Assembly: GCA_035945215.1 (NCBI GenBank)
Contig: DASZAJ010000007.1
Coordinates: forward strand, 7,264 to 71,263
DNA: 64,000 nt
Direction of reading: 5' to 3'
Source: Thermoplasmata archaeon
GTDB taxonomy: Archaea > Thermoplasmatota > Thermoplasmata > Lutacidiplasmatales > UBA184
The notes under the pieces were generated by a model. That model was not told the origin of the DNA, searched no databases, and worked only from the letters and a program-made list of their open reading frames with translations. Below are positions 2,269 through 49,771 of the stretch, piece after piece. The position numbers were made by a program, and so were the translations under genes. Numbering within the stretch: position 1 is the stretch's first letter; the number at the start of each line of letters is the position of its first letter.

Positions 2269-2343
2269 CGGGCGTGGGGGGATTTGAACCCCCGACCGCC
2301 GGGTTAGGAACCCGGTGCCCTATCCAGACTAGGCTACACGCCC
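2269..2343 (-). tRNA. tRNA-Arg (anticodon CCU)
   Basis: The reverse complement reads GGGCGTGTAGCCTAGTCTGGATAGGGCACCGGGTTCCTAACCCGGCGGTCGGGGGTTCAAATCCCCCCACGCCCG. It has a 7-bp acceptor stem, a GGGGG/CCCCC T-stem with a TTCAAAT loop, and an anticodon stem CCGGG/CCCGG with loop TTCCTAA, giving anticodon CCT. No CCA is encoded. Confidence 0.85.
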
Positions 2344-28708: not shown

Positions 28709-28763
28709 GGGGAACTCGGCGCACCCGGAACGGTACGAACTCTCGAGATTGGCGCGGCCATCA

Positions 28764-28772
28764 TTTTTATAC
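28764..28772 (+). promoter_or_regulatory. TATA box (TTTTTATAC) about 27 nt upstream of the GTG start of the giant surface-protein gene
   Basis: It is a clear AT-rich box in a GC-rich spacer, and the spacing suits a leaderless transcript. Confidence 0.5.
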
Positions 28773-28794
28773 CGGGACCACACCATTTGCGAAC

Positions 28795-32214: not shown

Positions 32215-33447
32215 ATGGTAGGGGACGGGACCGTCGGGCGACTCAAGGTCGATTGGGCCCGTGCCCACATGCCGGTCCTCGAAGGGATCCGGGCCCGGTT
32301 CCAGTCCGAACGGCCGTTCGCCGGCCTGACCTTATCGCTCGTCCTTCATGTCGAGGCGAAGACCGCGGCGCTCGCGCTGGCGCTCCAGGCCGGCGGGGGC
32401 GAGGTCCACGTGGCCGCCGGGAACCCGCTGTCCACCGATGACGACGCCGTCGCGGCCCTCATCGCCGAAGGCGTGGATGCCCACGCCCGCAAGGGCGAGA
32501 CGGTCGCCGAGTACCGGACCGGGGTCCGCGCGATGCTCGAGGCGGACCCGGACGTGATCGTCGACGACGGCGCCGACCTCGTCGCGCTCGCCCATACGGA
32601 GCGGCCCGACCGCGGGTCGATCCGGGGTTCGACGGAGGAGACGACGACGGGGGTCACCCGGTTACGGGCCCTCGAGAAGGCCGGCCGTCTGAGATTCCCG
32701 GCGATCGATGTGAACGACGCGCGGATGAAACACCTGTTCGACAACCGCTACGGCTGCGGCCAGTCGGTCCTCGACGGGCTCTTCGGCGCAACGAACCTGC
32801 TCATCGCCGGTCGAGTGGCCGTGGTCGCCGGCTACGGCTGGTCGGGCCAGGGGATCGCGACCCGGCTCCGGGGCCTGGGGGCCGAGGTCATCGTGACCGA
32901 GGTCGATCCCGTCCGCGCCCTCGAGGCCCGCCTCGAAGGGTTCCAGGTCCGGTCGATGCTCGATGCGGCCCCGGTCGCCGACCTCATCGTCACGGCGACC
33001 GGGAACCGCGACGTGGTCCGGACCGAGCATTTGCGCGTGCTCAAGGACGGCTGCCTGCTCGCCAATGCCGGCCACTTCGACGTGGAGGTCTCCCGGCCCG
33101 ATCTCGAGGGCCTCGCGGTGGAGCATCGACGGGTTCGGCCGCTGGTCGAGGAGTACCGGTTCGCCGATGGCCGCCGCGCCTACCTCATCGCCGAGGGGCG
33201 GCTCGTCAACCTGGCGGCCGGGCAAGGCCATCCCGTCGAGATCATGGACCTGAGCTTCGCGCTCCAGGCGCTGTGCGCCGAGCGGATCGCACAGCACGGG
33301 CTGCGCCTACCGGCCCAGGTCCTGCCCGTCCCGGAGGAGATCGATCTCGCGGTGGCCCGCGCCGCCCTCGCCCCGATGGGCGCCACGGTCGACGACCTCA
33401 CCGAGGGGCAACGTAAGTACGCCGAGAGCTGGGAGGGGGGGACATGA
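32215..33447 (+). CDS. ahcY: S-adenosyl-L-homocysteine hydrolase
   Basis: Motifs: NRYGCGQS, GYGWSGQGIA (NAD Rossmann) and HFDVE. 410 aa. A TATA-like gatttatc lies about 35 nt upstream. Confidence 0.9.
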   Translation: MVGDGTVGRLKVDWARAHMPVLEGIRARFQSERPFAGLTLSLVLHVEAKTAALALALQAGGGEVHVAAGNPLSTDDDAVAALIAEGVDAHARKGETVAEYRTGVRAMLEADPDVIVDDGADLVALAHTERPDRGSIRGSTEETTTGVTRLRALEKAGRLRFPAIDVNDARMKHLFDNRYGCGQSVLDGLFGATNLLIAGRVAVVAGYGWSGQGIATRLRGLGAEVIVTEVDPVRALEARLEGFQVRSMLDAAPVADLIVTATGNRDVVRTEHLRVLKDGCLLANAGHFDVEVSRPDLEGLAVEHRRVRPLVEEYRFADGRRAYLIAEGRLVNLAAGQGHPVEIMDLSFALQALCAERIAQHGLRLPAQVLPVPEEIDLAVARAALAPMGATVDDLTEGQRKYAESWEGGT

Positions 33448-36775: not shown

Positions 36776-39127
36776 TCAGGCGTCCGTGCGGCGCAGACCG
36801 TCGAGCTTCATCCGCTGCTCGAGGGCGGCGATCGAGCGGATCGTCGGGACGACGGTGTCCGCGTTGAGCGAGATCGAATCGATCCCCTTGCGGACCAGGA
36901 ACTCGGCGAACTCGGGGTAGACGCTCGGTCCTTGACCGCAGATCCCGACGGTGCGGCCCGCCGAATGCGCCCCCTCGATCAGCATCTCGACCGCCCGCAG
37001 CACGGCGGGGTCCCGCTCGTCGAAGTAGCCCATGCGACCGAGGATCTCCGAGTCGCGGTCGGCGCCGAGGACCAACTGGGTGAGATCGTTCGAACCGATG
37101 GAAAACCCGTCGCAATGCCGGGAGAAGTCCCGCGCCAGCAGGACGGTGGACGGGACCTCGGCCATCAGGTACAGCTGGAAATCCCGGGAGCGTTTCAGGC
37201 CGGCCGCCCGCATCATCTCGGTGATCTCCTCGAGCTCCCAGGTGTTGCGGACGAACGGGAGCATCACCATCGCGTTCTTGAGCCCCCGATCGACGCGCAC
37301 CTTCTGGATCGCCTCGAGCTCGGCCAGGAAGGCGGGCCGGTACACGGGCGAGACGTAGCGCGAGCACCCGCGCCATCCGATCATCGGGTTCTCCTCGCCG
37401 GGTTCGAACGGCTCCCCGCCGGGCATCCCGCGATATTCGTTCGTCTTGAAATCCGAGGTTCGGATGATCACGGGGCGCGGATGGAACGCCTGACAGACCA
37501 TCGCGATCCCCTCTGACAGTCGGGCGACGAGCTCGTCCTTGCGGCCCTTCTGAAGGAGGGAGAGCGGGTGCTCCCGGACATGGGCCGTGAAGATGAACTC
37601 GATGCGCATCAACCCCACCCCCTGGACCGGGAGGCGGGCGTACTCGGCGGCCTTCTCGGGGACGCCCACGTTCACGTAGATCTTTGTCGCAGTGACCGGC
37701 ACGTGGCCATGTGAGGGATCCGCCGAGCCTCCCTGGGCGGTCGGGCGAGCGGCCTTCGCCTGCTCGGCCCTCGCCAATCCCGCGTAGACCGCGCCGGCCT
37801 TCCCGTCGACGCTCACCGCCGCACCCTCGGCGATCATCTTCGTGGCCTGGCGGGTCCCGACGACACACGGCACGCCGAGTTCCCGCGACACGATCGCGGC
37901 GTGGCAGGTCATCCCGCCCTCATCGGTGACGATCGCCCCGGCCTGCGCCATCGCCGGTACCATATCCGGGGTCGTCATCGTCGTGACGAGGATCTCCCCG
38001 GCGCGCAACCGCCCCATCTCGGAGGCGGTCCGCAGGAGCCGGGCCGTGCCCCCCGCGATCCCCGGACTCGCCCCGAACCCGCGCACCAGCGCGCTGCCCG
38101 CTCCAGCTTCTTCCGGTTCGGGGGCGGTGCGCCCCTGGGGGCGATCGGCCACGAACGTGCCGGAGGGGATCGTCGTGATCGGCCGCGCCTGGACGATGTA
38201 GAGGGAGTGGGCGTCGGCGCACCATTCGACGTCCATCGGTCGGCGGTAATGCGATTCGATCACCCGCGCGAGGGATGCGAGCCGCTGGATCCGCTCATCG
38301 GACAGCTTCTGCCGATTGCGCTCGGCGGCCGGGACCTCTTCGCGTAGGTTCCCGCCATCGGGAGCCCGGACCAGCCGGAACGCCTGCTCGCTCACCTGCT
38401 TCTGGACGATGCGCTGCGACGCCCCATCCACCACATAGTGGTCGGGGGTCACCTCGCCGCCGACGATCGCCTCGCCCAGTCCCCAGCCGGCCTCGATGAT
38501 CATGTGGTTCTCGCCGGTGTTCGGGTCCCGGGTGAAGAGGATCCCGCTCGTGGACGCATCGACCATCTTCTGGACCAGGACCGCCAACTCGACCTCCGAG
38601 TGGTCGAACCCCTTCTTCGCCCGGTAGACGAGCACGCGGGGCGTGAACAGGGAACCCCAGCAACGGCGGATGGCGGCGAGGATCGCGTCGGTGCCGATCA
38701 CGTTCAGGTACGTCTCCTGGAGGCCGGCGAACGAGGCCCCTTCGAGGTCCTCCGCCGTGGCCGAGGAGCGGACGGCGCAGGCGTGCGCCTCGTGCTCCTG
38801 AACGAACGTGTCCACCGCGCCGACGAGCGCGCGGCGCAGTTCCGCGGGGAATTCGGTCTGTTCAAACAGGTCGCGGATCCTCCGGGACGCCGGTTCCACG
38901 CTCTCCGGCCGGGCCGGATCGATCTGCCCCAGCGCGGCGGTGATGGTGGGACCGATCCCCGTCCCCTCCACGAAGGCCACGAAGGCGCGGGTCGTGACGA
39001 CCATCCCCGGCGGCACCGGGAGTCCCTGCCGAACGACCTCCCCGAGCTGGCTCGCTTTGCCCCCGACCAGCGCATGGTCCCCCCGGGAGACCTCGGCTAG
39101 GCCCACGGTCAAGGGGGTGGCGTTCAC
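36776..39127 (-). CDS. ppsA: phosphoenolpyruvate synthase (pyruvate, water dikinase)
   Basis: 783 aa. The N-terminus matches PEP-utilisers (VGGKASQLGE). The phospho-His region is GGMTCHAAIVSRELGVPCVVG. The C-terminus is a PEP-binding TIM barrel. Confidence 0.9.
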   Translation of the reverse strand: MNATPLTVGLAEVSRGDHALVGGKASQLGEVVRQGLPVPPGMVVTTRAFVAFVEGTGIGPTITAALGQIDPARPESVEPASRRIRDLFEQTEFPAELRRALVGAVDTFVQEHEAHACAVRSSATAEDLEGASFAGLQETYLNVIGTDAILAAIRRCWGSLFTPRVLVYRAKKGFDHSEVELAVLVQKMVDASTSGILFTRDPNTGENHMIIEAGWGLGEAIVGGEVTPDHYVVDGASQRIVQKQVSEQAFRLVRAPDGGNLREEVPAAERNRQKLSDERIQRLASLARVIESHYRRPMDVEWCADAHSLYIVQARPITTIPSGTFVADRPQGRTAPEPEEAGAGSALVRGFGASPGIAGGTARLLRTASEMGRLRAGEILVTTMTTPDMVPAMAQAGAIVTDEGGMTCHAAIVSRELGVPCVVGTRQATKMIAEGAAVSVDGKAGAVYAGLARAEQAKAARPTAQGGSADPSHGHVPVTATKIYVNVGVPEKAAEYARLPVQGVGLMRIEFIFTAHVREHPLSLLQKGRKDELVARLSEGIAMVCQAFHPRPVIIRTSDFKTNEYRGMPGGEPFEPGEENPMIGWRGCSRYVSPVYRPAFLAELEAIQKVRVDRGLKNAMVMLPFVRNTWELEEITEMMRAAGLKRSRDFQLYLMAEVPSTVLLARDFSRHCDGFSIGSNDLTQLVLGADRDSEILGRMGYFDERDPAVLRAVEMLIEGAHSAGRTVGICGQGPSVYPEFAEFLVRKGIDSISLNADTVVPTIRSIAALEQRMKLDGLRRTDA

Positions 39128-40149
39128 GGGGACCGCCGGAGGGCGTAGGCGATGAGTTCCTGGGAGGGCGAATAGGCGTGCACCCGTCGGCCCTGGGCCG
39201 GCTCCCAGGTACCACCGGAACCTTCCCGAAGCACGCGGGCCAACTCCTCCGGGCGACGGTCCTTCGCCACCGATTCCGTCACCTCGTAATAGTGCAGCCA
39301 GCCGCCGGGCCCGACGGAGTTTCCCACCTCGGCGAGATACTTAATCCCTTCGCGGGGAAGATTGAAGATCACCCGATCGGCCGTCCCCGCGACGGGAATG
39401 AACTCGTCCAAAGAGGCATGCCGGAACTCCACGCGCCCGGCCAATCCGAGTCGCTTCGCATTCCCGAGTCCCAAGGCGACGGCCGCGCCGTTCAGGTCGA
39501 TGCCGACCACCTTGGAAGCTCGCCCGTCCCGGGCGATCTGGAGCGAGAAGGGGCCGATGCCGCAGCAGAGGTCGAACACCGTCTCCCCGTACTGCACCAG
39601 CCGGGCGATGCGCGCATGTTCCCGGGCCAGTCGGGGCGAGAAGTACGCGGCTTCCAGGTCCACGTCCATCGTCAGGCCGTTCTCCGAGTGCCGGGTGTGC
39701 CAGTCCCCCGTCCCTGCGATGCGTAGGAGCGATCGCCGGCGTTCGGTCCCGTGGACGCCGCGATCGACGCCCACGATGCGCGCACCGGGCACGAACTGCA
39801 GGAGCGCTGATCCGATCTCGGCGTGACGTTCGGACAATCCGGGCGGCAGTCGGATCAGCACCACGTCCCCGATGACGTCGAATGCCCGTGGCAGCGCCGA
39901 AGCCCCCGCCCCCCCGGGGGCGAGGAGATCCCGATACGAGCGCGGCCCCGGCGGCGCCACCGGATCGAACTCCCATTCGCCCACCCGTCCGCCGGGGACC
40001 CCGGGGTTCGGAACCGCCGTCAGCGGGAGCGCGAGGGAGTCGGAATCGGTGGCGATCCGAAGGTCCTTCCTCAGCCAATCCCCTTCGGATAGGAGGCGGC
40101 GGATCCGCTCCCCCTCGGCTCGCGGAACGATGAGTGCGAGGCTTCTCAC
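39124..40149 (-). CDS. tRNA (guanine37-N1)-methyltransferase Trm5 / Taw2-family (Met-10+ like)
   Basis: The class I MTase core is VFDLCCGIGPFSLQIA...VVGIDLN...FNLP. 341 aa. The family includes Trm5a/b and the wyosine-pathway Taw2. Confidence 0.75.
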   Translation of the reverse strand: MRSLALIVPRAEGERIRRLLSEGDWLRKDLRIATDSDSLALPLTAVPNPGVPGGRVGEWEFDPVAPPGPRSYRDLLAPGGAGASALPRAFDVIGDVVLIRLPPGLSERHAEIGSALLQFVPGARIVGVDRGVHGTERRRSLLRIAGTGDWHTRHSENGLTMDVDLEAAYFSPRLAREHARIARLVQYGETVFDLCCGIGPFSLQIARDGRASKVVGIDLNGAAVALGLGNAKRLGLAGRVEFRHASLDEFIPVAGTADRVIFNLPREGIKYLAEVGNSVGPGGWLHYYEVTESVAKDRRPEELARVLREGSGGTWEPAQGRRVHAYSPSQELIAYALRRSP

Positions 40150-41441
40150 GAGTGATCCCTAAGGAGGAGGGGCAAGACCGCATTCCCTCGGACCGTGCCC
40201 AAAGCTCCCCTCGCACATTGGGTCTCCCCGAATTTCGGGGCGGGCTCCTCCGTCGCCGCGGCGGCGGCCGCGACACCGGCTCCGGATATCAAGAGGGGAA
40301 CCGGGTCGTCGGAGTGCGCCCGCAGGGCGCACGGGGTGGCGTGATCGGCCGTGACGGCGACCCGGTGCTCGTCCAGGTCGAGGGCCGCCAGGAACGGTCC
40401 GAAAAAGGCCCGATCGATCTCCTCGATGATCGCCGTCTTCAGCGCGACGTTTCCATCGTGGCCCGGCTCGTCGGGTCCCTTGAGATGGACGTAGACGAAC
40501 TCATGGGCCCGCATCGCCTCCGCCGTGATGCGAGCCCGCGTTTCGAGCGCGGCCCCCCGGTCCGGCCCCATCGGACCGACGAATAGGTCGGCCATCCCGA
40601 GCCACCGCGCGATCCCGCGTTCGACCGGCATCTCGGTGACCGCCGCTGCCCCGATCCCCCATCGCTCGCGAAACGTCGGGGTCGGGGAGGCGGGGAGGGC
40701 GCCGGCGCTGCGAACCAGCAGGGAGTTGGCGACGAGCTTTCCGCTCATAGCGCGTCGCGCGTTGGTCGATTGTCCCGACAGCTGGGCGGCGGCCTCCGCC
40801 AAGAATCGATCGAGGAGCTGGGCGGTTCGGGCGGCCTCCAGCGAGTCATCGAGCGGCTCGACCGGTAGCCGTCGAGGGCGTTCGACCCGGCGGGCCTGTC
40901 CGGTGCCGCCGACCTTCACGTAGAACGGATCGGAGTTCGAGACCTCCGGGGAGAGCCGACGTCCGTCCTCCGGGTGCATCCAAAGCACCCCACGGTGGCC
41001 GACGGTCGCGCGAACTTCGGCCCGAACCCCCTCGGAGGCGAGCAGATCGGCCTCGGTGAGGGAGCGGGCGAGCTCGACCGCCTCGTGGCTCGTAAGCGAT
41101 CGGCCGACGCGCGCGTCCCGGATGACACCCTCGCCGTCGGACGTGGCGAAGTTGAGCCTCCAGGCGACATCCCCGGGCGCCAACGGGACCCCCGCTCCGA
41201 GGGCCTCGAGCACCCCCCGCCCCGGGGATTGTAGCCGCGGGTCGATGCCGAGCAGGGCGAGGACCCCGGCGTCCGACTCGGGGGCGATGCCGCGCCCGAG
41301 CAGATCGACCTGACCCGTCCGACCCGCCCGGGCGATCCGGTCGAGCTGCGGCGTCGCCGCGGCCTCCAGCGGAGTCCGTCCGTCCAGGTGCGGGTCGGGC
41401 CGGTCGCCAAGGCCGTCGAGGACAATCAGCGCGTGCGGCAT
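40146..41441 (-). CDS. apgM: 2,3-bisphosphoglycerate-independent phosphoglycerate mutase, archaeal type
   Basis: The gene starts at internal ATG 41441 (MPHALIVLDGLGDRP). The sequence resembles the alkaline-phosphatase-superfamily aPGM throughout. The C-terminus has TADHATP. Confidence 0.85.
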   Translation of the reverse strand: MPHALIVLDGLGDRPDPHLDGRTPLEAAATPQLDRIARAGRTGQVDLLGRGIAPESDAGVLALLGIDPRLQSPGRGVLEALGAGVPLAPGDVAWRLNFATSDGEGVIRDARVGRSLTSHEAVELARSLTEADLLASEGVRAEVRATVGHRGVLWMHPEDGRRLSPEVSNSDPFYVKVGGTGQARRVERPRRLPVEPLDDSLEAARTAQLLDRFLAEAAAQLSGQSTNARRAMSGKLVANSLLVRSAGALPASPTPTFRERWGIGAAAVTEMPVERGIARWLGMADLFVGPMGPDRGAALETRARITAEAMRAHEFVYVHLKGPDEPGHDGNVALKTAIIEEIDRAFFGPFLAALDLDEHRVAVTADHATPCALRAHSDDPVPLLISGAGVAAAAAATEEPAPKFGETQCARGALGTVRGNAVLPLLLRDHS

Positions 41442-41481
41442 CTCCGTCGTCGAACTCGCCTCATGCCTTATATGCCGTACC

Positions 41482-42546
41482 ATGCTCGCGGCCCCGTCGA
41501 TGGCCCCGGGAGGGTGGAAACAGTTCGGAACCCGCCGGATCGGGCGAGCGGTCCTGATGGCTGTGGCCATCTTGACCCTGGTCGGGAGCCTCGTCTACCT
41601 CGGCCCGTATGTGGCGATCGCGGTCCTGTTGCTGTTCGGGGCCGCCGTACCGATCTATCTCGGCTGGAAGCGGCCCCGCCAGCTCGCCATCGCCGGCCTG
41701 GCGGTTCTCCTGATCAGTGCCCCGATCTTTTCGGTCATCTACGCGAATGAACTGCGCCTTCCGAGCCCGTCGGCGAGTTCGAACCCGGCGAGCCCGTACG
41801 GCAACGGCGGGGCCGTCATCCAGGACGCGAAGGTGACCCCGTTCGACGGGGCCCAGGGGGGGACCTACAATTTCAGCGCCTCGATCGACCCGCAGTACCT
41901 GCCCCAAAGAGAGCAGGCCCGCTTCTTGACGCTGTACATCTCCGACTGCCCCGGGGCCACCGGGAATCGATCGCCCAATTGTCCGTCGGGGTATGCCTTC
42001 TTCGAGCTCAATCACACCTTCGCGTCGAATCTCTCCACCGCGTCGACGGTAACCTTCGCCCGATCGCTGCCCGGGGCCGACATCTGGTGGTGGAACCTCG
42101 CGCTCGCGATATCGAACAGCTCGTCACCGAAGAACCTCACGTGGGTCTGGCTCTACACCAACGGGAGCTACTCGGGGGTGGAAGGGCCGGTCTCCGGCGA
42201 TTTCCTATCGACCACGGAGCTCATCCTGCCCGCGGCGTACGAGGTGATCTTCATCTATCCGGGCCTCGTCTTTTTCATCGGCATTCTCGTCTACGTCCTG
42301 CTGAAGAACCGCGAGAGCGCTCGGAGGGCCCGAGCCCCGGGCTCCCTACCGCCTTCCGGGGGGACGGCCGAGCCACCTTCCGGGACCACCGAGAAGACGA
42401 TGCCGACCCCGGCAGGAAAGCAGGAGAGCGCCTGCCCGAACTGCGGCGCCGTCGTCTACCCAAATGAGCGAGCGTGCTGGAAGTGTGGCAAGAGCCTGGT
42501 CGTTCCGGTGGCCGCCGCCAACGAGCCGCTTGCGTCGACGAAGTGA
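41482..42546 (+). CDS. polytopic membrane glycoprotein with C-terminal cytoplasmic zinc ribbon
   Basis: It has N-terminal TM helices, an extracellular segment with sequons NFS, NRS, NHT, NLS, NSS, NLT and NGS, a further TM helix (VIFIYPGLVFFIGILVYVLL), and then CPNCGAVVYPNERACWKCG. Confidence 0.6.
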   Translation: MLAAPSMAPGGWKQFGTRRIGRAVLMAVAILTLVGSLVYLGPYVAIAVLLLFGAAVPIYLGWKRPRQLAIAGLAVLLISAPIFSVIYANELRLPSPSASSNPASPYGNGGAVIQDAKVTPFDGAQGGTYNFSASIDPQYLPQREQARFLTLYISDCPGATGNRSPNCPSGYAFFELNHTFASNLSTASTVTFARSLPGADIWWWNLALAISNSSSPKNLTWVWLYTNGSYSGVEGPVSGDFLSTTELILPAAYEVIFIYPGLVFFIGILVYVLLKNRESARRARAPGSLPPSGGTAEPPSGTTEKTMPTPAGKQESACPNCGAVVYPNERACWKCGKSLVVPVAAANEPLASTK

Positions 42547-42784
42547 TCGGTCGAGAGGCGCCCGCTCTCCCGCACGTGTCGTATCGTCCGACGGAGCTTT
42601 TGCCTCACGGGGCAGGGATCCGGACCGAAGCGCCGAAGAGCGCGGGAAAGCGACCTCGCGCGGCAAGTTATACTGCGGGTTCCGCCCGGGGCGGACGAAT
42701 TCGCGACCTTCGGGTTTGTTCGACACGACGATTCACCTCGTGTTCCAACCTGAGCGATGGCTCCGACGCCATCGGACGCCTTGG

Positions 42785-42792
42785 TTTAAGTA
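42785..42792 (+). promoter_or_regulatory. TATA-like box (tttaagta) about 30 nt upstream of the RHH gene start
   Basis: It is an AT-rich patch (ggtttaagtagaggaaatttccatag) in the 274-nt spacer. Confidence 0.35.
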
Positions 42793-42820
42793 GAGGAAAT
42801 TTCCATAGTTCGGACCCGTC

Positions 42821-43324
42821 GTGTTCGACAAACAGCTCCGACCGAAGAACTCGGGGGTTGCGCCCCGGGCTCTGAAGGTCGGCCCCGAGGACGAGCGGAT
42901 CGCACTACGGTGCAACCGCCGGGAGCTCCAGCTGGTGGACTCGTTCGTTGCCACGGGCGAGTTCCGAAACCGCTCTGAGCTCGTCCGGCAGGCGCTCCGC
43001 GCGTTCCTTCGAGGCCGAGCCCAATCGGCCGTCGAGCCGCCCGCTCCCGTCGCCAACGAACCGGAACTCGTCGAGGTCCGGGTCCGACTGCGATCGGGGG
43101 AAGTGGAGACCTATCGGGCCTACGGGGAACTCGTCGCGAACGGCCAGCAGCTCGAGGATCTCCTCGCCCTGCTCGTTCGACGGGGGGAACTCGAGCTCAA
43201 GGTCTCGGAAACGGTCGCCCGGTCTCGCGCCGCGATCCGCGACGCCACCGAAGCGAAACACCGTATCCGCGAGCTCGAACGGAGTGCGGAGGAGCTGGAG
43301 CGTCGGGGGGTCGTCGGGCGGTAG
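42821..43324 (+). CDS. ribbon-helix-helix (CopG/Arc-like) DNA-binding protein with C-terminal coiled-coil
   Basis: A GTG start is assumed. IALRCNRRELQLVDSFVATGEFRNRSELVRQALRAFL has the RHH beta-strand plus two helices. The C-terminus is heptad-like and charged (EAKHRIRELERSAEELERRG). Confidence 0.55.
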   Translation: MFDKQLRPKNSGVAPRALKVGPEDERIALRCNRRELQLVDSFVATGEFRNRSELVRQALRAFLRGRAQSAVEPPAPVANEPELVEVRVRLRSGEVETYRAYGELVANGQQLEDLLALLVRRGELELKVSETVARSRAAIRDATEAKHRIRELERSAEELERRGVVGR

Positions 43325-43357
43325 CCTCCGACGTGCGTCGAATCGGACGAAAAAGGG

Positions 43358-44272
43358 GTGGGTGCGGTGTACGAGGGAGAGGGACGAACGGGAGAGCGCG
43401 TCGAGGAATTCGGCACCGGCGAGGGGTACGAATCGGTGGGTGTCGAGTCCGTCCGGCTCGGCCAGGACATCCGCTTCGTGCTCGCCGCGGTGGGCGGCGG
43501 TGGGATCCGTGTAGCCCGAGCCGTGGCCCGACAGCACCTGCCCTACCTCGAAACCGTCGCGATCAATTGTGACCCGAGGGTCCAGGAGCTGGAGGAGTTC
43601 GACCGGCGGATCTGCCTAGGACCCGAGAACGGCGACCCCCCGGAGACCGGCGGGTCGGCGTCGGTCGGCGGACGACTCGCCCGTTCCGCCGAACCGGTCC
43701 TGCAGCGTCTCTTCGAAGGGGCCCATTTCATCACCATCGTTGCCAGCCTGGGGGGCGGCACCGGGAGCGGGGCGCTGCCGTTCGTCGTCGAGGCCGCCGC
43801 CCGCAACGCCTCCGTCCTCAAGGTCTTCGCGATCCGTCCGTTCGAATGCGAGGCCGAGCGACGCGCGCTCGCGGACCGGACCTTGGCGCGATTGCACTTC
43901 CTGGACGCGTTCGTCGAGCGACAACAGCGCGGCCACGCGACGCTCCAGGTCCTCGACAACGAGACCCTCGCCCGCCAGGATCGGAAGCTTCCGATCGCGC
44001 AGGTCGACCGGTACTGGGCCGGGATCGTGGCCCGGTTGATCGAGCGCGAGCTCATCCAGCCGGCCGAAGCGGTCCTCCACGCCGAGCGAATGCGCGCCTA
44101 CACCCCCGAGGCGGCGCTGATCCGACCGGCGCCGGTCGATCTGGGGATCACGGAGCGCGAACCATTGCTGCCCGCCGGGCCTCGACTCGCCCCCGCGGTC
44201 GCCGCGGAATCGCCGATCACCGGCGTCGAACTGACCTTGGAGATACTGCCCCCGGGAAGCGGTCCGGCCTGA
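43358..44272 (+). CDS. divergent FtsZ/tubulin-superfamily GTPase
   Basis: All N-domain GTP-binding loops are visible with FtsZ-like spacing: T1 AAVGGGGIRVA, T3 AINCDPRVQ, T2-like GGSAS, T4 signature SLGGGTGSGALP and T5 IRPFECEAERR. The N-terminus has an acidic 35-aa extension. No canonical NxDxxD T7 loop was recognised by eye. The alternative start GTG 43367 lies 10 nt after an aaaaagggg purine tract. Confidence 0.65.
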   Translation: MGAVYEGEGRTGERVEEFGTGEGYESVGVESVRLGQDIRFVLAAVGGGGIRVARAVARQHLPYLETVAINCDPRVQELEEFDRRICLGPENGDPPETGGSASVGGRLARSAEPVLQRLFEGAHFITIVASLGGGTGSGALPFVVEAAARNASVLKVFAIRPFECEAERRALADRTLARLHFLDAFVERQQRGHATLQVLDNETLARQDRKLPIAQVDRYWAGIVARLIERELIQPAEAVLHAERMRAYTPEAALIRPAPVDLGITEREPLLPAGPRLAPAVAAESPITGVELTLEILPPGSGPA

Positions 44273-44293
44273 TCGGACCCCCGCGAGCGGGGG
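44261..44293 (+). other. two adjacent hairpins spanning and following the stop of the FtsZ-like gene
   Basis: The hairpins are GGTCCG-gcctgat-CGGACC and CCCCCGC-ga-GCGGGGG, both perfect inverted repeats. No T-tract follows. Confidence 0.3.
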
Positions 44294-44464
44294 ATGGCGG
44301 CCCTCTTGGGATAGGGAGGCATTGTCGAGCGAGCGGCCCCCCGAAGTGTCCGATAGGATCATTCCGAGGCCACGGGTTCCCGACTCCGGTCGAACGGGCT
44401 AACGGCGGCACCCCGCGGCCGACCCCCAATCAAACGTTATCTGGTCGACGGCGTCGGGCCGGCG

Positions 44465-44635
44465 ATGGACGGGCGCTTGGTGACCGCGCTGACGACGCTG
44501 CTCGTCCCGGCGGTCCTCATCGGCATCACGGTATGGAAGTTCGCGGCGAACCCGCTCGCGATGCTGATCTTGATCTCCACGATGGTCGCCGGCACGCTGT
44601 ACCTGCTGACGTATCGGGAAACGTTCGGCGCGTAG
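44465..44635 (+). CDS. small 2-TM membrane protein (56 aa)
   Basis: Hand translation gives MDGRLVTALTTLLVPAVLIGITVWKFAANPLAMLILISTMVAGTLYLLTYRETFGA. It falls below the ORF-track cutoff. Confidence 0.35.
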   Translation: MDGRLVTALTTLLVPAVLIGITVWKFAANPLAMLILISTMVAGTLYLLTYRETFGA

Positions 44636-44644
44636 GGGAGGGCT

Positions 44645-45424
44645 TCACCCGTAGATCGTCGGTTCCGAGGGGGGAGCGGGGGTCTCGGCGGGACCGGCCG
44701 CCTTGCGGTCCCGACCCTTGAGCGCCGCTCGAAGCGCCCGCTCGATGGCCTCGGCCTGGGAGCGTAGAGGACCGGTATCGATCTTTAGGGACGGGAGCAT
44801 TCGATCCAGCGCTTCGATGAGCGCGGCCCCGGCCCGATGGTCCGGGAAACCCTCCTCCGAAGGATGCGCGCTGACGAGCAAAACCGCCACCGGTACGGTC
44901 TTCCGGATGCCCTCGACGAGCAGGGCCCCGGAGACCCCGCCGATCACCCCGTCCTCGAGCAGGCGGGCCTTGGACGATCGCAGCTGGTCGGCCAGCCGTT
45001 CGTCCGGTCGCGATAGCGCGGCCCACACGTACTCCTCGTTCGCGTCCTCGCTCGGGGCGCTCGTGGGGTGGGGAACGACCCCCTCGAGGCCGATCACCAA
45101 CTTCGCTTGCCGCGCCTCCGCCCCGTTTAGGATCATCCGCGCGATCTCCGGCCCGGCGGACGGAGCCACCGGCAGTTCGGACAGGACGACGCCGAGGTCG
45201 GGTCGGCCGTGGATGCGGACCGCCGGCTGGACTCGGCCCGATTGCACGATCGCGATGGAGGAGCCGTCGGGGCTGTCGACGAGGCCGATGCGCGGGAGCG
45301 CGAGGGTCTGAACGATGTAGTGGGCGGCGACCGTCGCCGCGAGGCCGGCGCTCGGGAAGCTCGTCAGGACGATGGCCCCGGCCTGTAGGACCGGACGCTC
45401 CTCATCGATCCAGCGGGCGGCCAT
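44645..45424 (-). CDS. PAC2-family protein (proteasome assembly chaperone-like)
   Basis: 259 aa. The N-terminus AIVLTSFPSAGLAATVAAHYIVQTLAL...IGLVDSPD, the length and the layout fit archaeal PAC2/COG1938. Confidence 0.65.
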   Translation of the reverse strand: MAARWIDEERPVLQAGAIVLTSFPSAGLAATVAAHYIVQTLALPRIGLVDSPDGSSIAIVQSGRVQPAVRIHGRPDLGVVLSELPVAPSAGPEIARMILNGAEARQAKLVIGLEGVVPHPTSAPSEDANEEYVWAALSRPDERLADQLRSSKARLLEDGVIGGVSGALLVEGIRKTVPVAVLLVSAHPSEEGFPDHRAGAALIEALDRMLPSLKIDTGPLRSQAEAIERALRAALKGRDRKAAGPAETPAPPSEPTIYG

Positions 45425-45543
45425 CGGAACCTTGGGGACGCCTATCGTCGCCCCTACTTATCGAAGGAGAGGGGCCGGCGGCGCCGCAGGGTTCGGCGCG
45501 GCTCCTTGCCCCCGACAACCGACAAGTACTGCCCCCCGTTCCG

Positions 45544-46572
45544 ATGCCCGTGGGGCTCCCGTTCGGCGACATCGTCCATCCCCGGGAGATTCCGTGGTCG
45601 ACGCTCGCCGGTCGACTTCTAGCCGTGGACGGCAACAATGCCGTCTACCAATTCCTCGCCACGATCCGTCAGCACGATGGTCAGCCGTTCTCCGATCCCA
45701 ATGGCCACGTCACAAGCCACCTCATCGGCGTGTTGTATCGAACGACCTCCCTGCTCGGGCAGGGGATCCGCCCGATCTGGGTCTTCGACGGCAAGCCACC
45801 GGACCTGAAGGCGGGGACCCTGAGCGCCCGATTCCGGGCCAAGGAACGGGCGGAGACGCAATGGAAAGAGGCCGTCGAGCGGCAGGATTGGGAGACCGCG
45901 AAGAGGAAGGCCGCCGCTACCTCCCGATTCACGCGGCCGATGGCCGCCGAAGCGATGGAGCTGCTGCGCGCTCTCGGGGTTCCGACCGTCCAGGCCCCGT
46001 CCGAGGGGGAGGCCCAGGCGGCCCGCATGGCCTCCGACGGCGCGGTGTGGGCGGCCGCTTCCGAGGATTACGATGGATTGCTCTTCGGCGCCCCGCGCCT
46101 GGTGCGCGGTCTGGCGGCCCGGGCCCGATCCGGCAACGATCCCGCCGCCCAGTTGCTGGAGCGGGACGCCGTGCTAGCCGACCTGGGGATCAGCTCGGAG
46201 GAGCTCTTGCTCCTCGGGTTGATCGTCGGGACGGATTTTAACGACGGCGCGCGCGGGTTCGGCCCCAAGAAGGGTCTTCAGCTCGTCCGCAAGCACCTCG
46301 GCTGGGAGGCCACCCTGAACGCCGCGAAGCTCGAGGCGGCGGACGTCGAAGCGGCCGCGGCGATCTTTCGAACGCCGGAGGTCGCCGAACCCGGGCCGAT
46401 CAACTTCCAGCCGATCGATCGGGACGCGGTGGATCGGATCCTCGTCGACGGAAGGGGCTTTTCGGCCGATCGCGTCCATGCCGCGCTGCAGCGCGCCGAG
46501 CGCGCGCCCGTGGTCCTCATGCCCTCCGATGGACGGCGGCAGAGCCGGCTCGACGGGTTCGGGGGAACGTGA
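45544..46572 (+). CDS. fen: flap endonuclease 1
   Basis: The N domain is LAVDGNNAVYQFL and the I domain is GVPTVQAPSEGEAQAARMA. GTDFN is present. 342 aa. Confidence 0.9.
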   Translation: MPVGLPFGDIVHPREIPWSTLAGRLLAVDGNNAVYQFLATIRQHDGQPFSDPNGHVTSHLIGVLYRTTSLLGQGIRPIWVFDGKPPDLKAGTLSARFRAKERAETQWKEAVERQDWETAKRKAAATSRFTRPMAAEAMELLRALGVPTVQAPSEGEAQAARMASDGAVWAAASEDYDGLLFGAPRLVRGLAARARSGNDPAAQLLERDAVLADLGISSEELLLLGLIVGTDFNDGARGFGPKKGLQLVRKHLGWEATLNAAKLEAADVEAAAAIFRTPEVAEPGPINFQPIDRDAVDRILVDGRGFSADRVHAALQRAERAPVVLMPSDGRRQSRLDGFGGT

Positions 46573-48077
46573 AGCTCTTCGAAGCGGTCCCGAACTTCTC
46601 GGAAGGCCGCGATGGAGCGAAGGTCGACCGTATCGCCCAAGCGGGACGCTCCGTTTCGGGGGTCGCTCTGCTCGACGTCGAATCCGATCCCGCCCACCAC
46701 CGCTCCGTCCTGAGCCTTGCCGGCGCGGGCCCTCCGCTCGTCGAGGCCCTCGTTCGCATGTCGCGGGTCGCCCTCGAGGTCATCGACCTCAATCACCACG
46801 TCGGGGAGCACCCTCGAATGGGGGCGGTCGATGTGGTCCCGATCGTCCCGCTCGGGGAGGCGACCATGGCCGAAGCGGTGGCCCTCTCCGAGCAGCTCGC
46901 GCAGCGGGTATGGACCGAGCTGGGGATCCCCGTGTACCTTTACGCCGCTTCGGCCCGGCGGCCGGAGCGCTCCGATCTCGCAAAGCTGCGCCGGGGGGAG
47001 TTCGAGGGCATCCGGGCCGAGATCGCAACGAACCCGGACCGCGCCCCGGACTTCGGATCGGCGCAGGTGCACCCCACGGCGGGCATCGTGGCGATCGGGG
47101 CGCGTCCGATCCTCATCGCCTTCAACGCCTACCTCGCCACGCCGGACGTCGGGATCGCGAAACAGATCGCCCATTCGGTTCGGGAGCGCGACGGGGGATT
47201 GCCGGCCGTGAAGGCCCTCGGATTCACGATCGAGGGCCGCGGGCAGGCGCAAGTTTCGATGAACCTGGTCGACTATCATATGACCCCGATCCACGCCGCA
47301 CTCGAGGCGGTCCGGGCCGAGGCGGGTCGGCGAGGCACGAAGGTCGTGGCATCGGAGGTCGTCGGCCTGGTCCCGACGGACGCCCTCGTGGATGCCGCCG
47401 AGCACTACCTTGAGCTCGAGAAGTTCGACCGGACCGCCCTCCTGGAACGGCGGCTCGAGCGGCTCGAGCGGCTCGACCAGGGCACTCCCTCCGGCGCCGA
47501 CGCGCCCTTGCGCGAAAACTCTCTCTCCGAGTTCTCCGACCGCGTGGCCGCCCGCACGCCGACGCCCGGCGGCGGCAGCGTTTCGGCCGCAGCCGGGGCG
47601 TTCGGGGCGGCCCTCGGGGTGATGGTGCTACGGTACTCGCGCCCGGCCGAGGGACCGGATCCGGAGCTCGACGAGGGGATCGCCGAGCTCGATCGGGCCC
47701 GGAGTCGATTGCTCGAACTGGTGGACGCGGACGCGGCCTCGTACGAGGCGGTGCGTTCCGCGCGCAAGGCCCGGAAGGCCCGACCCGAAGACGTGGAGGC
47801 CCGCCAGGCCCATCGCGCCGCGCTGCGGACCGCGACGGAGGTGCCGTTGGAGACCGCGCGGGTCGCACGCGGGGCCGCGGACCTGCTCGACCGGGTACGC
47901 GGCCGGGTCAAGCCGGCGATCCTCAGCGACCTGGTGACCGGCTCCGCGCTGCTGCGAGCCTCCGTGGTGGGAGCGGCAGCGAACGTGCGGGTGAACCTCA
48001 AGGACCTCGCGCTTGAGGGGATCGACCCCCGGGGGTTAGAGCAGGAGCTCGCGAGCGTGACCGAAGGGCTGCCGTGA
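46569..48077 (+). CDS. glutamate formimidoyltransferase fused to formiminotetrahydrofolate cyclodeaminase (FTCD-like)
   Basis: The N-terminus MKLFEAVPNFSEGRD is the hallmark start of formiminotransferase. The C-terminal domain PTPGGGSVSAAAGAFGAALGVMV is cyclodeaminase-like. Confidence 0.75.
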   Translation: MKLFEAVPNFSEGRDGAKVDRIAQAGRSVSGVALLDVESDPAHHRSVLSLAGAGPPLVEALVRMSRVALEVIDLNHHVGEHPRMGAVDVVPIVPLGEATMAEAVALSEQLAQRVWTELGIPVYLYAASARRPERSDLAKLRRGEFEGIRAEIATNPDRAPDFGSAQVHPTAGIVAIGARPILIAFNAYLATPDVGIAKQIAHSVRERDGGLPAVKALGFTIEGRGQAQVSMNLVDYHMTPIHAALEAVRAEAGRRGTKVVASEVVGLVPTDALVDAAEHYLELEKFDRTALLERRLERLERLDQGTPSGADAPLRENSLSEFSDRVAARTPTPGGGSVSAAAGAFGAALGVMVLRYSRPAEGPDPELDEGIAELDRARSRLLELVDADAASYEAVRSARKARKARPEDVEARQAHRAALRTATEVPLETARVARGAADLLDRVRGRVKPAILSDLVTGSALLRASVVGAAANVRVNLKDLALEGIDPRGLEQELASVTEGLP

Positions 48078-48742
48078 ACGCCGACCGCCCCGAGATCCTC
48101 GTCAACTGCGCCGTCTCCCTCGACGGTCGACTGGCGTGCGCGGGGGGCCGCCGCGCGCTCCTGTCCGGTCCCGAAGACCTGGTCCGCGTCCAACGGATGC
48201 GTGCCTCCGCCTCGGCGATCGTCGTGGGCGCCGGCACGGTGATCTCGGACGACCCGTCCCTGCGGGTCCACTGGGACATGCTAGGCGAGGCGGAACGCGC
48301 CGGACCGGTGCGGGTCGTGCTCGATTCGATGGGGCGGATCCCCGACGGCGCCCGGGTTCTTGATGGGACGCAGCCGACCCTCATCGTCACGGCCGAGCGG
48401 TGCCGCCGTCGGTTCCCCCCGACGGTCGAGACGGTCGTCGGGGGCGCGGATCGCGTCGAGCTCCCCCAGCTATGGACCCTTCTCAGCGCCCGGGGGATGC
48501 GTTCGGTGATGGTCGAGGGGGGCGGCAATGTCATCGCGAGCGTGCTGCGTTCGGGGGAGTTCGACCGGATGACCGTGTACGTCGCCCCGGTCGTCATCGG
48601 CGGTCGGACGGCCCCGAGCCTGGCGATCGGTCCGGAGTGTGCCGACGAGTCCGGGCTCCAGCCCGTGGTCTTCCTCGAAGCGCGGCCGTTGGGGACCGGC
48701 GTGCTGCTTACGTACGGCCCGCCCCGGGCAGGGCCGAGCTAG
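48074..48742 (+). CDS. 2,5-diamino-6-ribosylamino-4(3H)-pyrimidinone 5'-phosphate reductase (RibD C-terminal-type reductase)
   Basis: ILVNCAVSLDGRLA, VVGAGTVISDDPSL and MVEGGGNVIASVL are DHFR-like reductase-fold motifs. Confidence 0.75.
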   Translation: MNADRPEILVNCAVSLDGRLACAGGRRALLSGPEDLVRVQRMRASASAIVVGAGTVISDDPSLRVHWDMLGEAERAGPVRVVLDSMGRIPDGARVLDGTQPTLIVTAERCRRRFPPTVETVVGGADRVELPQLWTLLSARGMRSVMVEGGGNVIASVLRSGEFDRMTVYVAPVVIGGRTAPSLAIGPECADESGLQPVVFLEARPLGTGVLLTYGPPRAGPS

Positions 48743-48787
48743 CCGAGGGCTTATCTTTCGGGCCGCGTCGCCCCACGGAGGTCTGCC

Positions 48788-49771
48788 GTGCGGCTCGTGC
48801 ATTTCGTCCTGTCCGATCAGTTCCACTTCGGCATGATCACCGACCAGAACGAGTTCATCGACCTCGACACCGCCTGCCGCGATTACTTCGGCGTGAATCC
48901 GATCAAAGGGGCCGATCCGAGCCGGTTCCGCGACATGCGGGCGTTCTTCCAGGGCGGCCCCGAGTCGGTCGAGATCACCCGGAAGATCCTCGAGTACATC
49001 GAGCGGCGTCGGAAGGCCGGCTGGACCCCGAGGGCGGCGACGGGGGCCCGCTTCCTTTTCAAACCCGAAGAGGGGGTCCGGCTCCTCGCGCCCATCGTCG
49101 CCGGCTCGAAGATCTACTGCCTGGCGGCGAACTCCCGCTCGCACGTGGCGGAGCAGGCGAAGCCCGCCCCGAGCCAGCCGTTCGCCTTCACGCGCTTCTT
49201 CAACAGCCTGGTCGGCCCGAGCGAGCCCCTCGTGCTCCACGCCGCCGGGAGCTTCCCCGACGTCGAACTCGAGCTCGCGGCCGTCGTCGGACTGCGCGGC
49301 AAGCATGTCAGCGCAGCGAAGGCGATGGACCACGTGGCCGGCTACACGATCGCCCTCGACATGGGCTACCGGGACCTCCAGTATCCGGCCGCGGGCTCGG
49401 TCGACTGGGTCATGGGCAAGGGGTTCGACGCGACGATGGCCGTCGGGCCCTGGGTGGTCCCGAAGGAGGAGGTCGGGGAACCGTACCCGCTACGGATGGA
49501 GCTGAAGGTCGGGGGCGTCCTGCGGCAGGCCGGGGACACCTCCGACTACATCTTCCGGATCCCGCAGGTGATCGAGCATCTGACGAAGGGGATCACGCTC
49601 GAGCCCGGGGACTTGATCTCGCTCGGGAGCCTGGGTGGAACGAAGGGATTCGAGTTCGGCCAGGAGTCCCGCAAGCTCAAGGCCGGGGACAGCATCGAGG
49701 GTTCCATCGAGAAGATCGGTCGCCTCGTCGTCCCCGTCACACCGGAAGCTCCGCCTCCCCCCGCAGGATAA
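48788..49771 (+). CDS. fumarylacetoacetate hydrolase (FAH) family protein
   Basis: The C-terminal domain carries FAH-fold motifs (GDLISLGSLGGTKGFEFG...LKAGDSIEGSIEKIGRL). 327 aa. Confidence 0.75.
   Translation: MRLVHFVLSDQFHFGMITDQNEFIDLDTACRDYFGVNPIKGADPSRFRDMRAFFQGGPESVEITRKILEYIERRRKAGWTPRAATGARFLFKPEEGVRLLAPIVAGSKIYCLAANSRSHVAEQAKPAPSQPFAFTRFFNSLVGPSEPLVLHAAGSFPDVELELAAVVGLRGKHVSAAKAMDHVAGYTIALDMGYRDLQYPAAGSVDWVMGKGFDATMAVGPWVVPKEEVGEPYPLRMELKVGGVLRQAGDTSDYIFRIPQVIEHLTKGITLEPGDLISLGSLGGTKGFEFGQESRKLKAGDSIEGSIEKIGRLVVPVTPEAPPPPAG

Follow-up and report, generated by a model that had tools for sequence, protein, structure and literature searches.

A truncated FtsZ2-like GTPase beside a CdrS-like ribbon-helix-helix protein in Lutacidiplasmatales: a candidate derived cdrS-ftsZ2 operon

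A stretch of 64 kb of DNA from a soil Thermoplasmata metagenome-assembled genome (MAG) of the Lutacidiplasmatales (UBA184/TMEG) group, here called the window, carries next to each other on one strand a gene for a ribbon-helix-helix (RHH) protein and a gene for a divergent GTPase of the FtsZ/tubulin kind. Taken as a whole the pair seems best explained, and with somewhat more than even confidence, as the Lutacidiplasmatales version of the cdrS-ftsZ2 operon, in which the RHH protein regulates its own synthesis and the truncated FtsZ2 acts in division as a monovalent subunit that docks on filaments. The cdrS-ftsZ2 reading is built on the finding of the same RHH gene upstream of full-length FtsZ2 and of five other truncated FtsZ lineages, and on the published arrangement of such loci. 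A first-pass annotation made from the sequence had instead proposed the logic of a TubR/TubZ type III segregation module, which finds no support in that the GTPase leans towards FtsZ2, the best match of the RHH protein is CdrS and the same RHH gene precedes full-length FtsZ2. The pairing of a conserved "half FtsZ2" and an enlarged RHH protein, which turns up repeatedly in Thermoplasmata, is apparently undescribed; no paper describing a truncated archaeal FtsZ2 was found in the literature.

The GTPase and its relatives

Residues of the GTPase are given in the numbering of a 304-residue form. Pfam Tubulin (PF00091) covers residues 43-178 with 51.5 bits (cut-off 33), the same Pfam scan gives no match to FtsZ_C (PF12327), and the NCBIfam model ftsZ (TIGR00065) is matched over model positions 20-161 alone, with 65.5 bits against a cut-off of 295. 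The acidic N-terminal extension and the GTP-binding loops picked out in the first-pass annotation are indeed present, and across 24 homologues the glycines and key residues of GGGG (T1), AINCD, GGGTGSG (T4), RPFECEAERR (T5) and LDNE (T6) are invariant. The invariant columns of the family alignment cluster in these loops, and an N-terminal RLGxDxRF motif is conserved there as well. An AlphaFold model made with 24 homologues as input (mean predicted local distance difference test score, pLDDT, 81.6) has residues 30-248 folded, mostly with pLDDT above 90, as the GTPase domain and a 36-residue helix H7 (213-248), and leaves residues 1-30 and 250-304 disordered. H7 is predicted with high confidence to run about 10 residues beyond its usual length, occupying the place of the H7-T7-H8 segment. 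The T7 synergy loop (NxDxxD) and the C-terminal subdomain are absent by AlphaFold, Pfam and alignment alike, and hand alignment with the FtsZ2 proteins P0422 and P0378 puts P235 at the start of the T7 loop with NxDxxD missing. The earlier view that the protein lacks T7, and is not a canonical division FtsZ, is therefore borne out by a model that ends in H7 and then disorder. Most family members have an acidic residue four positions after P235-x-E237, whereas the window protein and its closest relatives have H, N or R at that second acidic position. The tail is otherwise unalignable, yet conservation among 24 homologues reaches 90% or more at E291, L292, T293 and E295.

The sequence matches in the PDB are all FtsZ, none being CetZ, TubZ or tubulin at E < 0.01, and the top 50 Foldseek matches are FtsZ throughout. 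For the question of which FtsZ this might be, proteins were called FtsZ2-type on an xLDNN T6 motif and termini like those of haloarchaeal FtsZ2, two of them being anchored by an upstream RHH gene. By BLAST the GTPase core of the window protein scores at best 58 bits with the FtsZ2 type and 48 bits with FtsZ1 and bacterial sequences (medians 46 and 35), the FtsZ1 set being small and narrow; the corresponding best bits for the truncated proteins P0188, P0238 and P0151 are 178 against 130, 134 against 112 and 82 against 56. The T6 motif is LDNE in the window protein, LDNN in the FtsZ2 type and IPND in FtsZ1 and bacterial sequences. In a neighbour-joining tree with narrow FtsZ1 sampling the window's family is monophyletic (100%), and all truncated families group together (51% bootstrap) nested in the FtsZ2-type clade. 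The GTPase appears from such comparisons to be closest to the archaeal FtsZ2 type, with modest support for the window protein itself.

The first-pass annotation had left the choice of family open between FtsZ1, FtsZ2, CetZ, FtsZl1 and TubZ/PhuZ. Membership of FtsZ, by sequence and by fold, came out of the comparison, with a modest lean towards the FtsZ2 type; a T7 loop did not, and nor did CetZ, FtsZl1 or TubZ/PhuZ. A TubZ or PhuZ identity was rejected, the two-domain fold of that type being absent and both sequence and fold being FtsZ-like. CetZ was set aside in the same way for want of a CetZ-type fold with its tubulin-like C-terminal domain, and FtsZl1 was rejected on a Tubulin_2 (PF13809) match of E = 0.078 and 12.7 bits, a length of 301 residues, and a neighbourhood of an RHH gene, PAC2 and FEN1.

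A word-indexed search gave at least 120 homologues, and 119 of the 120 listed have 288-323 residues, the sole exception (251 residues) lying on a 977-bp contig; all those listed with an organism name are assigned to a Thermoplasmata archaeon. Scanning one genome per GTDB species placed the GTPase in at least 121 genomes. Loci were compared for 80 of 121 genomes, of which 79 have upstream DNA and 76 gave upstream regions that were aligned. The 80 are MAGs labelled Thermoplasmata or parent phyla, bar one labelled "bacterium"; among them are Candidatus Lutacidiplasma and UBA184, which belong to the order Lutacidiplasmatales (PMC9287336). In an exhaustive hidden Markov model (HMM) search of 1.84 billion representatives 21 clusters fell below 1e-30, followed by a gap and then generic FtsZ from about 1e-18, and the ratio of nonsynonymous to synonymous substitution rates (dN/dS) of the GTPase between orthologue pairs is 0.03-0.16. 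Given the HMM gap, the dN/dS values and the held length, this is a compact and functional family under strong purifying selection and not a decaying one. That the gene could be a functionless, decaying relic of ftsZ2 might be suggested by the loss of some 100 residues from a domain that is as a rule essential, but the constancy of length, the spread over species-level genomes, the dN/dS range, the invariant GTP-loop residues and the conserved C-terminal peptide effectively refute such an idea, which is hardly credible.

An RHH orthologue of 165-168 residues lies 25-50 nucleotides upstream of the GTPase gene in 79 of the 79 loci with upstream DNA. Within the order, conservation extends to the entire neighbourhood, so that synteny there is on its own weak evidence, and what decides the matter is the evidence from beyond the order. 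Further FtsZ-like families without FtsZ_C emerged from the exhaustive search, namely P0151 (about 300 residues), P0188 (273 residues, Methanomassiliicoccales), P0158 (281 residues), P0238/P0358 (257 residues) and P0172 (248 residues). Each of the five other truncated FtsZ lineages has a same-strand gene for a protein of 107-162 residues directly upstream, and the flanking genes are unrelated between the truncated families. Full-length FtsZ proteins of other Thermoplasmata, P0378 (349 residues) and P0422 (370 residues), both with FtsZ_C, have an RHH gene for 105-112 residues directly upstream. The conservation of the pair in relatives, on which the first-pass annotation had made its proposal depend, is thus seen in six independent truncated-FtsZ lineages with differing flanks.

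Across these lineages the length of the RHH protein rises as FtsZ shortens or diverges, from 105-112 residues beside full-length FtsZ2 to 120-130 beside FtsZ of 248-273 residues and 136-167 beside the most diverged FtsZ of about 300 residues, a trend which hints at co-evolution or direct interaction. In GCA_024278375.1 the short FtsZ is called as two open reading frames (ORFs) of 227 and 78 residues (L085:6001-6924), reflecting either a frameshift or pseudogene or else an assembly error. The metagenomic protein set also holds tandem FtsZ-FtsZ fusions, P0142 (826 residues) and P0143 (731 residues), with two Tubulin and two FtsZ_C domains each.

The RHH protein, its promoter and candidate operators

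Pfam RHH_8 and RHH_1 match the RHH protein just below threshold and its best NCBIfam match is CdrS (NF058555, E = 1.5e-7, 31 bits against a cut-off of 100), in keeping with the RHH identity first given to it. CdrS is likewise the best or near-best NCBIfam match for each RHH protein found beside an FtsZ or a short FtsZ. Repeat 1 spans residues 25-66 or so and a long C-terminal helix residues 130-161, with a probable degenerate second RHH repeat at about residues 82-125. No internal repeat was detected by hhalign in the window protein; its second half has a strand-helix-helix pattern resembling the second repeat of its relatives, which are tandem RHH proteins of 105-162 residues. The repeats are clear in the proteins beside full-length FtsZ2, where the CdrS model matches twice and hhalign between the halves gives 96%, and hhalign of the window's RHH family against these proteins gives 97% probability over repeat 1 and the start of repeat 2. 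The coiled-coil tail described in the first-pass annotation is unproven; part of it resembles the degenerate second repeat, behind which a single long helix runs. All orthologues share the termini MFD... and ...GVVGR. A single-sequence model of the protein was poor (pLDDT 45.6) and was not used for fold searching. The aCcr1 model gives weak matches to the relatives' RHH proteins (25-30 bits) and none to the window protein, and ParR is a very weak NCBIfam match for some of the relatives' proteins (E 0.03-0.08).

The spacer ahead of the RHH gene is 274 nucleotides long (42547-42820), as first reported. When 76 orthologous upstream regions are aligned, anchored on the RHH start codon, four conserved elements appear (Table 1). 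The TATA box holds a fixed position relative to the start codon in 75 of the 76 loci with 1.65-1.9 bits per position, which secures the TATA-like box of the first-pass annotation, and its core TTTAAGTA is unique within the window. The GnAnTTTSCAT element downstream could serve as a proximal part of the promoter or as another site for protein binding. Its other match in the window, at 13701-13711 on the minus strand inside a 321-residue ORF (12933-13898), looks like chance. No palindrome is claimed as an operator for this stretch between TATA box and start codon, as its dyad symmetry is weak and shows no covariation beyond column composition.

The remaining two elements are copies of the 9-mer TGTTCGACA, in which TGT and ACA arms flank a 3-nucleotide centre, and they stand 105 nucleotides, about ten helical turns, apart. 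There are three exact copies in the 64 kb, two of them at the locus; the third, at 32735-32743 (+), is inside an ORF (32215-33447) that aligns with a partial AdoHcyase gene at the edge of the locus L001 and looks like chance. All but one of the 76 orthologous regions have GTTCGAC at -102 to -105, with TTGTTCGACACGTCAG at about -104, and a further GTTCGAC 21 nucleotides upstream (-125) is found in 39 of 76 and not in the window. At the start codon all 76 loci have the identical nucleotides GTGTTCGAC, even at wobble positions. The RHH gene starts with GTG in 76 of 76 genomes (42821-42829 in the window); an operator motif accounts for TGTTCGAC there and not for the initial G. A scan of the spacer of the find_repeats type yields short two-copy matches alone, TGTTCGACA becoming meaningful only after the 76-locus comparison. 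At a Thermoplasmata locus with a full-length RHH-FtsZ2 pair (L091, 3505-3638) TGTCCGAC occurs three times with spacings of 104 and 22 nucleotides, closely matching the 105/21-nucleotide geometry of TGTTCGACA in the window's order, and a Methanomassiliicoccales locus repeats TGTATGACA. The L091 locus adjoins an IS240-family transposase and a restriction-modification pair.

From their placement the TGTTCGACA sites may be autoregulatory operators of the RHH protein. Two or three helically phased sites fit such an operator better than a many-iteron centromere because the copies are so few and bracket the promoter and start codon. Of the operator repeats that had been anticipated in the spacer, conserved short motifs of the RHH-binding kind do therefore exist, whereas an iterated, centromere-like array is not there, the two or three copies bracketing the promoter.

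The gap between the genes is 33-42 nucleotides depending on the start taken for the GTPase. Both ORFs stand where the first-pass annotation placed them (43358-44272 for the longer FtsZ-like frame), and the GTPase probably starts at GTG 43367, giving 301 residues and the N-terminus MYEGEG. The start is favoured by the database entry P0001, by MYE or MFE beginnings in most orthologues and by a Shine-Dalgarno-like AAGGGGTG 7-14 nucleotides upstream; P0001, 100% identical to the GTPase, comes from a Thermoplasmata archaeon MAG and bears the annotation hypothetical protein. Nearly all orthologous loci have GGGGTGG or GGGGGGG ahead of the start codon of the FtsZ-like gene, and comparison of these loci found no other conserved motif in the gap. 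With the Shine-Dalgarno-like run as its sole motif the gap fits a single transcript.

Table 1. Features of the RHH-GTPase locus in window coordinates (residues in 304-residue numbering)
Feature	Position	Strand	Remarks
Upstream 9-mer TGTTCGACA (extended consensus TTGTTCGACACGTCAG)	42717..42725	+	about -104; candidate RHH operator sub-site
Archaeal TATA box GTTTAAGTA	42784..42792	+	-37 to -29 from RHH start codon; core TTTAAGTA 42785-42792
Proximal element GnAnTTTSCAT (here GAAATTTCCAT)	42796..42806	+	-25 to -15; position-specific conservation, 76 loci
CdrS-like RHH gene	42821..43324	+	GTG start, 167 residues
Second TGTTCGACA copy	42822..42830	+	over codons 1-4 (GTG TTC GAC AAA); candidate operator sub-site at or near transcription start
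Shine-Dalgarno-like purine/G run AAGGGGTGGGTG	43353..43364	+	in the gap between both genes
Truncated FtsZ2-like GTPase gene	43367..44272	+	301 residues; alternative GTG 43358 gives 304 residues
FtsZ-type nucleotide-binding domain, loops T1-T6	43460..43993	+	residues 35-212; pLDDT 90-98
Extended helix H7	43994..44101	+	residues 213-248; invariant W220, P235-x-E237
Pro/Ala-rich disordered linker	44102..44224	+	residues 249-289; pLDDT 45-55; variable between homologues in both length and sequence
Conserved C-terminal peptide VELTLEI (family consensus ELTFEV)	44225..44245	+	candidate partner-binding motif, by analogy with the C-terminal peptide of FtsZ

What the pair may do

A derived cdrS-ftsZ2 operon would be read from one promoter into a bicistronic transcript with a very short leader or none, its second gene having a Shine-Dalgarno-like site of its own. 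The CdrS-type regulator would have been enlarged from about 60 to 167 residues by the addition of a degenerate second RHH repeat and a long helix. It would bind the TGT-N3-ACA 9-mers, at -104, at the start codon and, in half of the relatives, at -125, for autoregulation of the operon, and by analogy with CdrS it may govern other division genes too. The GTPase would be a descendant of FtsZ2 that has kept the GTP domain, H7, linker and C-terminal peptide and lost T7 and the C-terminal subdomain. Because these last two are missing, it should offer the nucleotide ("top") face alone, and would neither form a canonical head-to-tail polymer nor activate GTP hydrolysis by a neighbour. As a monovalent GTP-dependent subunit it may instead dock its nucleotide face on the T7 face exposed at the end of a full-length FtsZ filament and so cap, limit or tether that end, with the C-terminal peptide linking it to an anchor such as SepF and the co-transcribed regulator setting its dosage.

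A number of points weigh against this scheme. The FtsZ2 affinity of the window protein is modest, at about 30% identity, and the truncated-family cluster has a bootstrap of about 51%, with long-branch attraction possible and the FtsZ1 reference set small and narrow. The H7 aspartate with which FtsZ reads guanine is not evident in the GTPase family, the CdrS match reaches 31 bits against the 100 of the cut-off in a protein nearly three times the length of CdrS, and ELTFEV is unlike the archaeal GID-type C-terminal motif (PMC8178401). There is no full-length FtsZ1, FtsZ2 or SepF in the 64 kb window and no canonical FtsZ in the fetched loci either, and a search with the Thermoplasmata FtsZ P0199 gave no Lutacidiplasmatales-like, high-GC canonical FtsZ among the matches listed; the supplements of the Lutacidiplasmatales paper contain nothing on FtsZ or SepF. 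Should these genomes have no full-length FtsZ, capping would lack a filament to act on. Lastly, the invariant P235-x-E237 together with the nearby acidic residue on H7 could be a substitute T7 that allows self-assembly.

The last of these points is the core of an alternative in which the protein is a self-assembling minimal FtsZ2, the extended H7 with its P-x-E and acidic residue replacing T7, and still serves as the constriction FtsZ2 of these archaea. On balance we think such an FtsZ2 unlikely. The invariance of P235 and E237 at the start of the T7 loop, the second acidic residue four positions on in most members and the confidently predicted ten or so extra residues of H7 speak for it, as do the position of the gene as in an ftsZ2 operon, its strong purifying selection and the want of any canonical FtsZ for the order in the window, in the fetched loci and among the matches listed. 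Set against these, the second acidic residue is replaced by H, N or R in the window protein and its closest relatives, and to our knowledge every characterised tubulin-superfamily polymer builds the bottom face of its subunit from the C-terminal subdomain. A GTP-sensing co-regulator is a quite improbable alternative to the docking subunit, in which the GTPase, no longer having a cytoskeletal role, would associate with the enlarged RHH protein and adjust that protein's hold on DNA to the GTP level, coupling growth to the transcription of division genes. It would make sense of a GTP pocket conserved without the polymerisation half, of the strict coupling of the pair, of RHH lengths that track FtsZ truncation across lineages and of the invariant RHH termini MFD and GVVGR, which suggest protein binding. 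The kept linker and C-terminal peptide are, however, typical of an FtsZ tethered to a membrane anchor, and we know of no precedent for an FtsZ-family protein in such a role.

Chromosomal segregation of a TubRZ/PhuZ-like or ParR/parC-like style, with the RHH protein on repeats that form a mini-centromere and the GTPase tail positioning the DNA, has very little probability. Conserved repeats do bracket the promoter in helical phase, at -125, -104 and +2 with spacings of 21 and 105 nucleotides, and the iterons of parC of plasmid R1 flank a promoter as well. The disordered tail with its conserved peptide is as in TubZ, the lengthening of the RHH protein as FtsZ shortens could reflect a direct protein-protein interaction, and there are the very weak ParR matches of some relatives (E 0.03-0.08). 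Yet the GTPase is like FtsZ and not like TubZ or PhuZ and lacks the T7 face for a polymerising motor, the short sites number merely two or three (which leaves room for a small centromere), plasmid or virus relatives are absent from PLSDB and IMG/VR, and the same RHH gene stands ahead of full-length FtsZ2 in what is the division operon of haloarchaea (PMC7439475, PMC8406309). A slim chance may be given to a combined picture, in which the enlarged RHH protein and the half-FtsZ join on the TGTTCGACA sites in a complex under the control of GTP, and so tie the machinery of division or segregation physically to a place on the chromosome. If so, the GTPase derived from FtsZ2 would act through a DNA-bound adaptor rather than a ring polymer, in a minimal system encoded by the chromosome, and Thermoplasmata would repeatedly have made of a cytokinetic tubulin a non-polymerising switch or positioning factor, possibly where the canonical FtsZ ring has been lost.

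The derived cdrS-ftsZ2 operon remains the preferred reading. In archaea with an S-layer or without a wall, FtsZ2 is regarded as the FtsZ of constriction. A whole order, at least 121 species-level genomes, keeps what appears to be the GTP-binding half of FtsZ2 under strong purifying selection, as do at least five other lineages including Methanomassiliicoccales, the gene being always tied to an enlarged CdrS-like regulator. This amounts to a natural experiment on what an FtsZ2 has to keep, and points to a capper or anchor of filament ends, a new assembly mode or a non-cytoskeletal GTP switch. The cdrS-ftsZ2 module would at the same time be extended to Thermoplasmata, with a tandem-RHH form of the regulator added and a candidate operator sequence provided.

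Genomic setting and known systems

The surrounding 64 kb is ordinary archaeal chromosome, with genes for eRF1, MoaC, archaeosine TGT, Kae1, CysRS and PPDK, and further for the proteasome chaperone PAC2, FEN1, FTCD and primase; PAC2 and FEN1 are among the neighbours of the pair. GC is even, at 0.64-0.75, over the 11 kb profiled around the pair (38000-48800), and no relatives of the GTPase family were found in IMG/VR or PLSDB. A defence-system, phage or plasmid origin was rejected on the housekeeping setting, the uniform GC and the absence of relatives in those two databases. In an Rfam scan of the whole window a tRNA-Arg (CCT) at 2269-2343 (-) was the sole RNA family match, and structured RNA in the 274-nucleotide spacer was rejected accordingly. 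The twin hairpins that the first-pass annotation drew after the GTPase gene dissolve on inspection, being no more stable than shuffled sequence (z = +1.14), and a terminator scan found nothing.

Just 3' of the FtsZ-like gene lies a 56-residue ORF (44465-44635, +) with two transmembrane helices by appearance, which is kept in nearly all of the 80 Lutacidiplasmatales loci and is not beside the truncated FtsZ of other lineages; the order may have here a membrane partner of its own, or just a conserved neighbour. Directly upstream of the pair is a gene for a 354-residue membrane protein (41482-42546, +) whose C-terminus has a zinc ribbon, matched weakly by Zn_Ribbon_1 and DZR, and which in other genomes of the order is 2.5-4 kb distant. 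Haloarchaeal CdrL, the second regulator of cdrS-ftsZ2, has a double zinc ribbon (PMC7439475), and the zinc ribbon common to the two is probably coincidence. A 1264-residue protein of the window (28351-32145, +) has as its only Pfam matches several zinc-ribbon and double-zinc-ribbon modules near its C-terminus.

Compared with TubR-TubZ and PhuZ systems, the order of a DNA-binding gene and then a tubulin-superfamily GTPase with a flexible C-terminal tail is the same, as are repeated motifs upstream. TubR is a winged-helix protein whereas the adaptor here is RHH, and the window has two or three short sites on a chromosome in contrast to a multi-iteron tubC on a plasmid or phage. The type II ParR/parC systems resemble the locus in an RHH protein with likely sites bracketing its own promoter in helical phase, and differ in having about ten iterons against two or three and an actin-like ATPase in place of an FtsZ-family GTPase as the partner; similarity to ParR is negligible, being seen at E 0.03-0.08 in relatives only. 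Among bacteria, FtsZ3 of A. tumefaciens is reportedly an FtsZ paralogue that has lost C-terminal parts, and truncated bacterial paralogues of this sort are said to be of independent origin, with no RHH gene coupled to them and no conservation throughout an order.

A divergent FtsZ-superfamily GTPase without the canonical C-terminal domain is also what FtsZl1 and FtsZl2 offer (Makarova and Koonin 2010, PMC2875224). FtsZl1, however, has about 1000 residues with a coiled coil, an alpha-helical C-terminal domain, Tubulin_2 and no recognisable T6-H7, whereas T6 and H7 are clear in the window protein, and the vWA/OmpA gene neighbourhood of FtsZl1 differs from that of the window (PMC2875224). The aCcr1 protein of Sulfolobales is, like the RHH protein is presumed to be, a small archaeal RHH transcription factor controlling division genes, but it serves ESCRT-based division and has no link to an FtsZ gene (PMC9976878).

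The nearest counterpart is cdrS-ftsZ2 itself, with VNG0194H-VNG0192G of H. salinarum and cdrS-ftsZ2 of H. volcanii (ftsZ2 being HVO_0581) as reference loci. Both in Halobacterium and in Haloferax, division needs cdrS, which shares a transcript with ftsZ2, and the locus is reported to be conserved across Euryarchaeota. Two RHH proteins bind DNA there, CdrL at a place upstream of cdrS-ftsZ2 and CdrS at a symmetric motif that lies 41-110 nucleotides ahead of the transcription starts of ftsZ1 and other genes (PMC7439475, PMC8406309). Pende et al. report that ftsZ2 frequently adjoins parD, an RHH gene, and that the SepF-binding C-terminal peptide of archaeal FtsZ2 is of the GID type (PMC8178401). 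The window departs from this in an FtsZ without T7 and C-terminal subdomain, of 301 residues against 349-400 in the full-length FtsZ2-type proteins compared, in a C-terminal peptide ELTFEV that is not of the GID type, and in an RHH protein of 167 residues with a degenerate second repeat and a long helix in contrast to the single domain of about 60 residues in CdrS. It agrees in a small, co-oriented RHH gene directly 5' of an FtsZ2-type gene, probably co-transcribed with it in a chromosomal housekeeping setting, in CdrS as the best family match of the RHH protein, and in symmetric motifs of the RHH-binding type upstream, which here are candidate sites.

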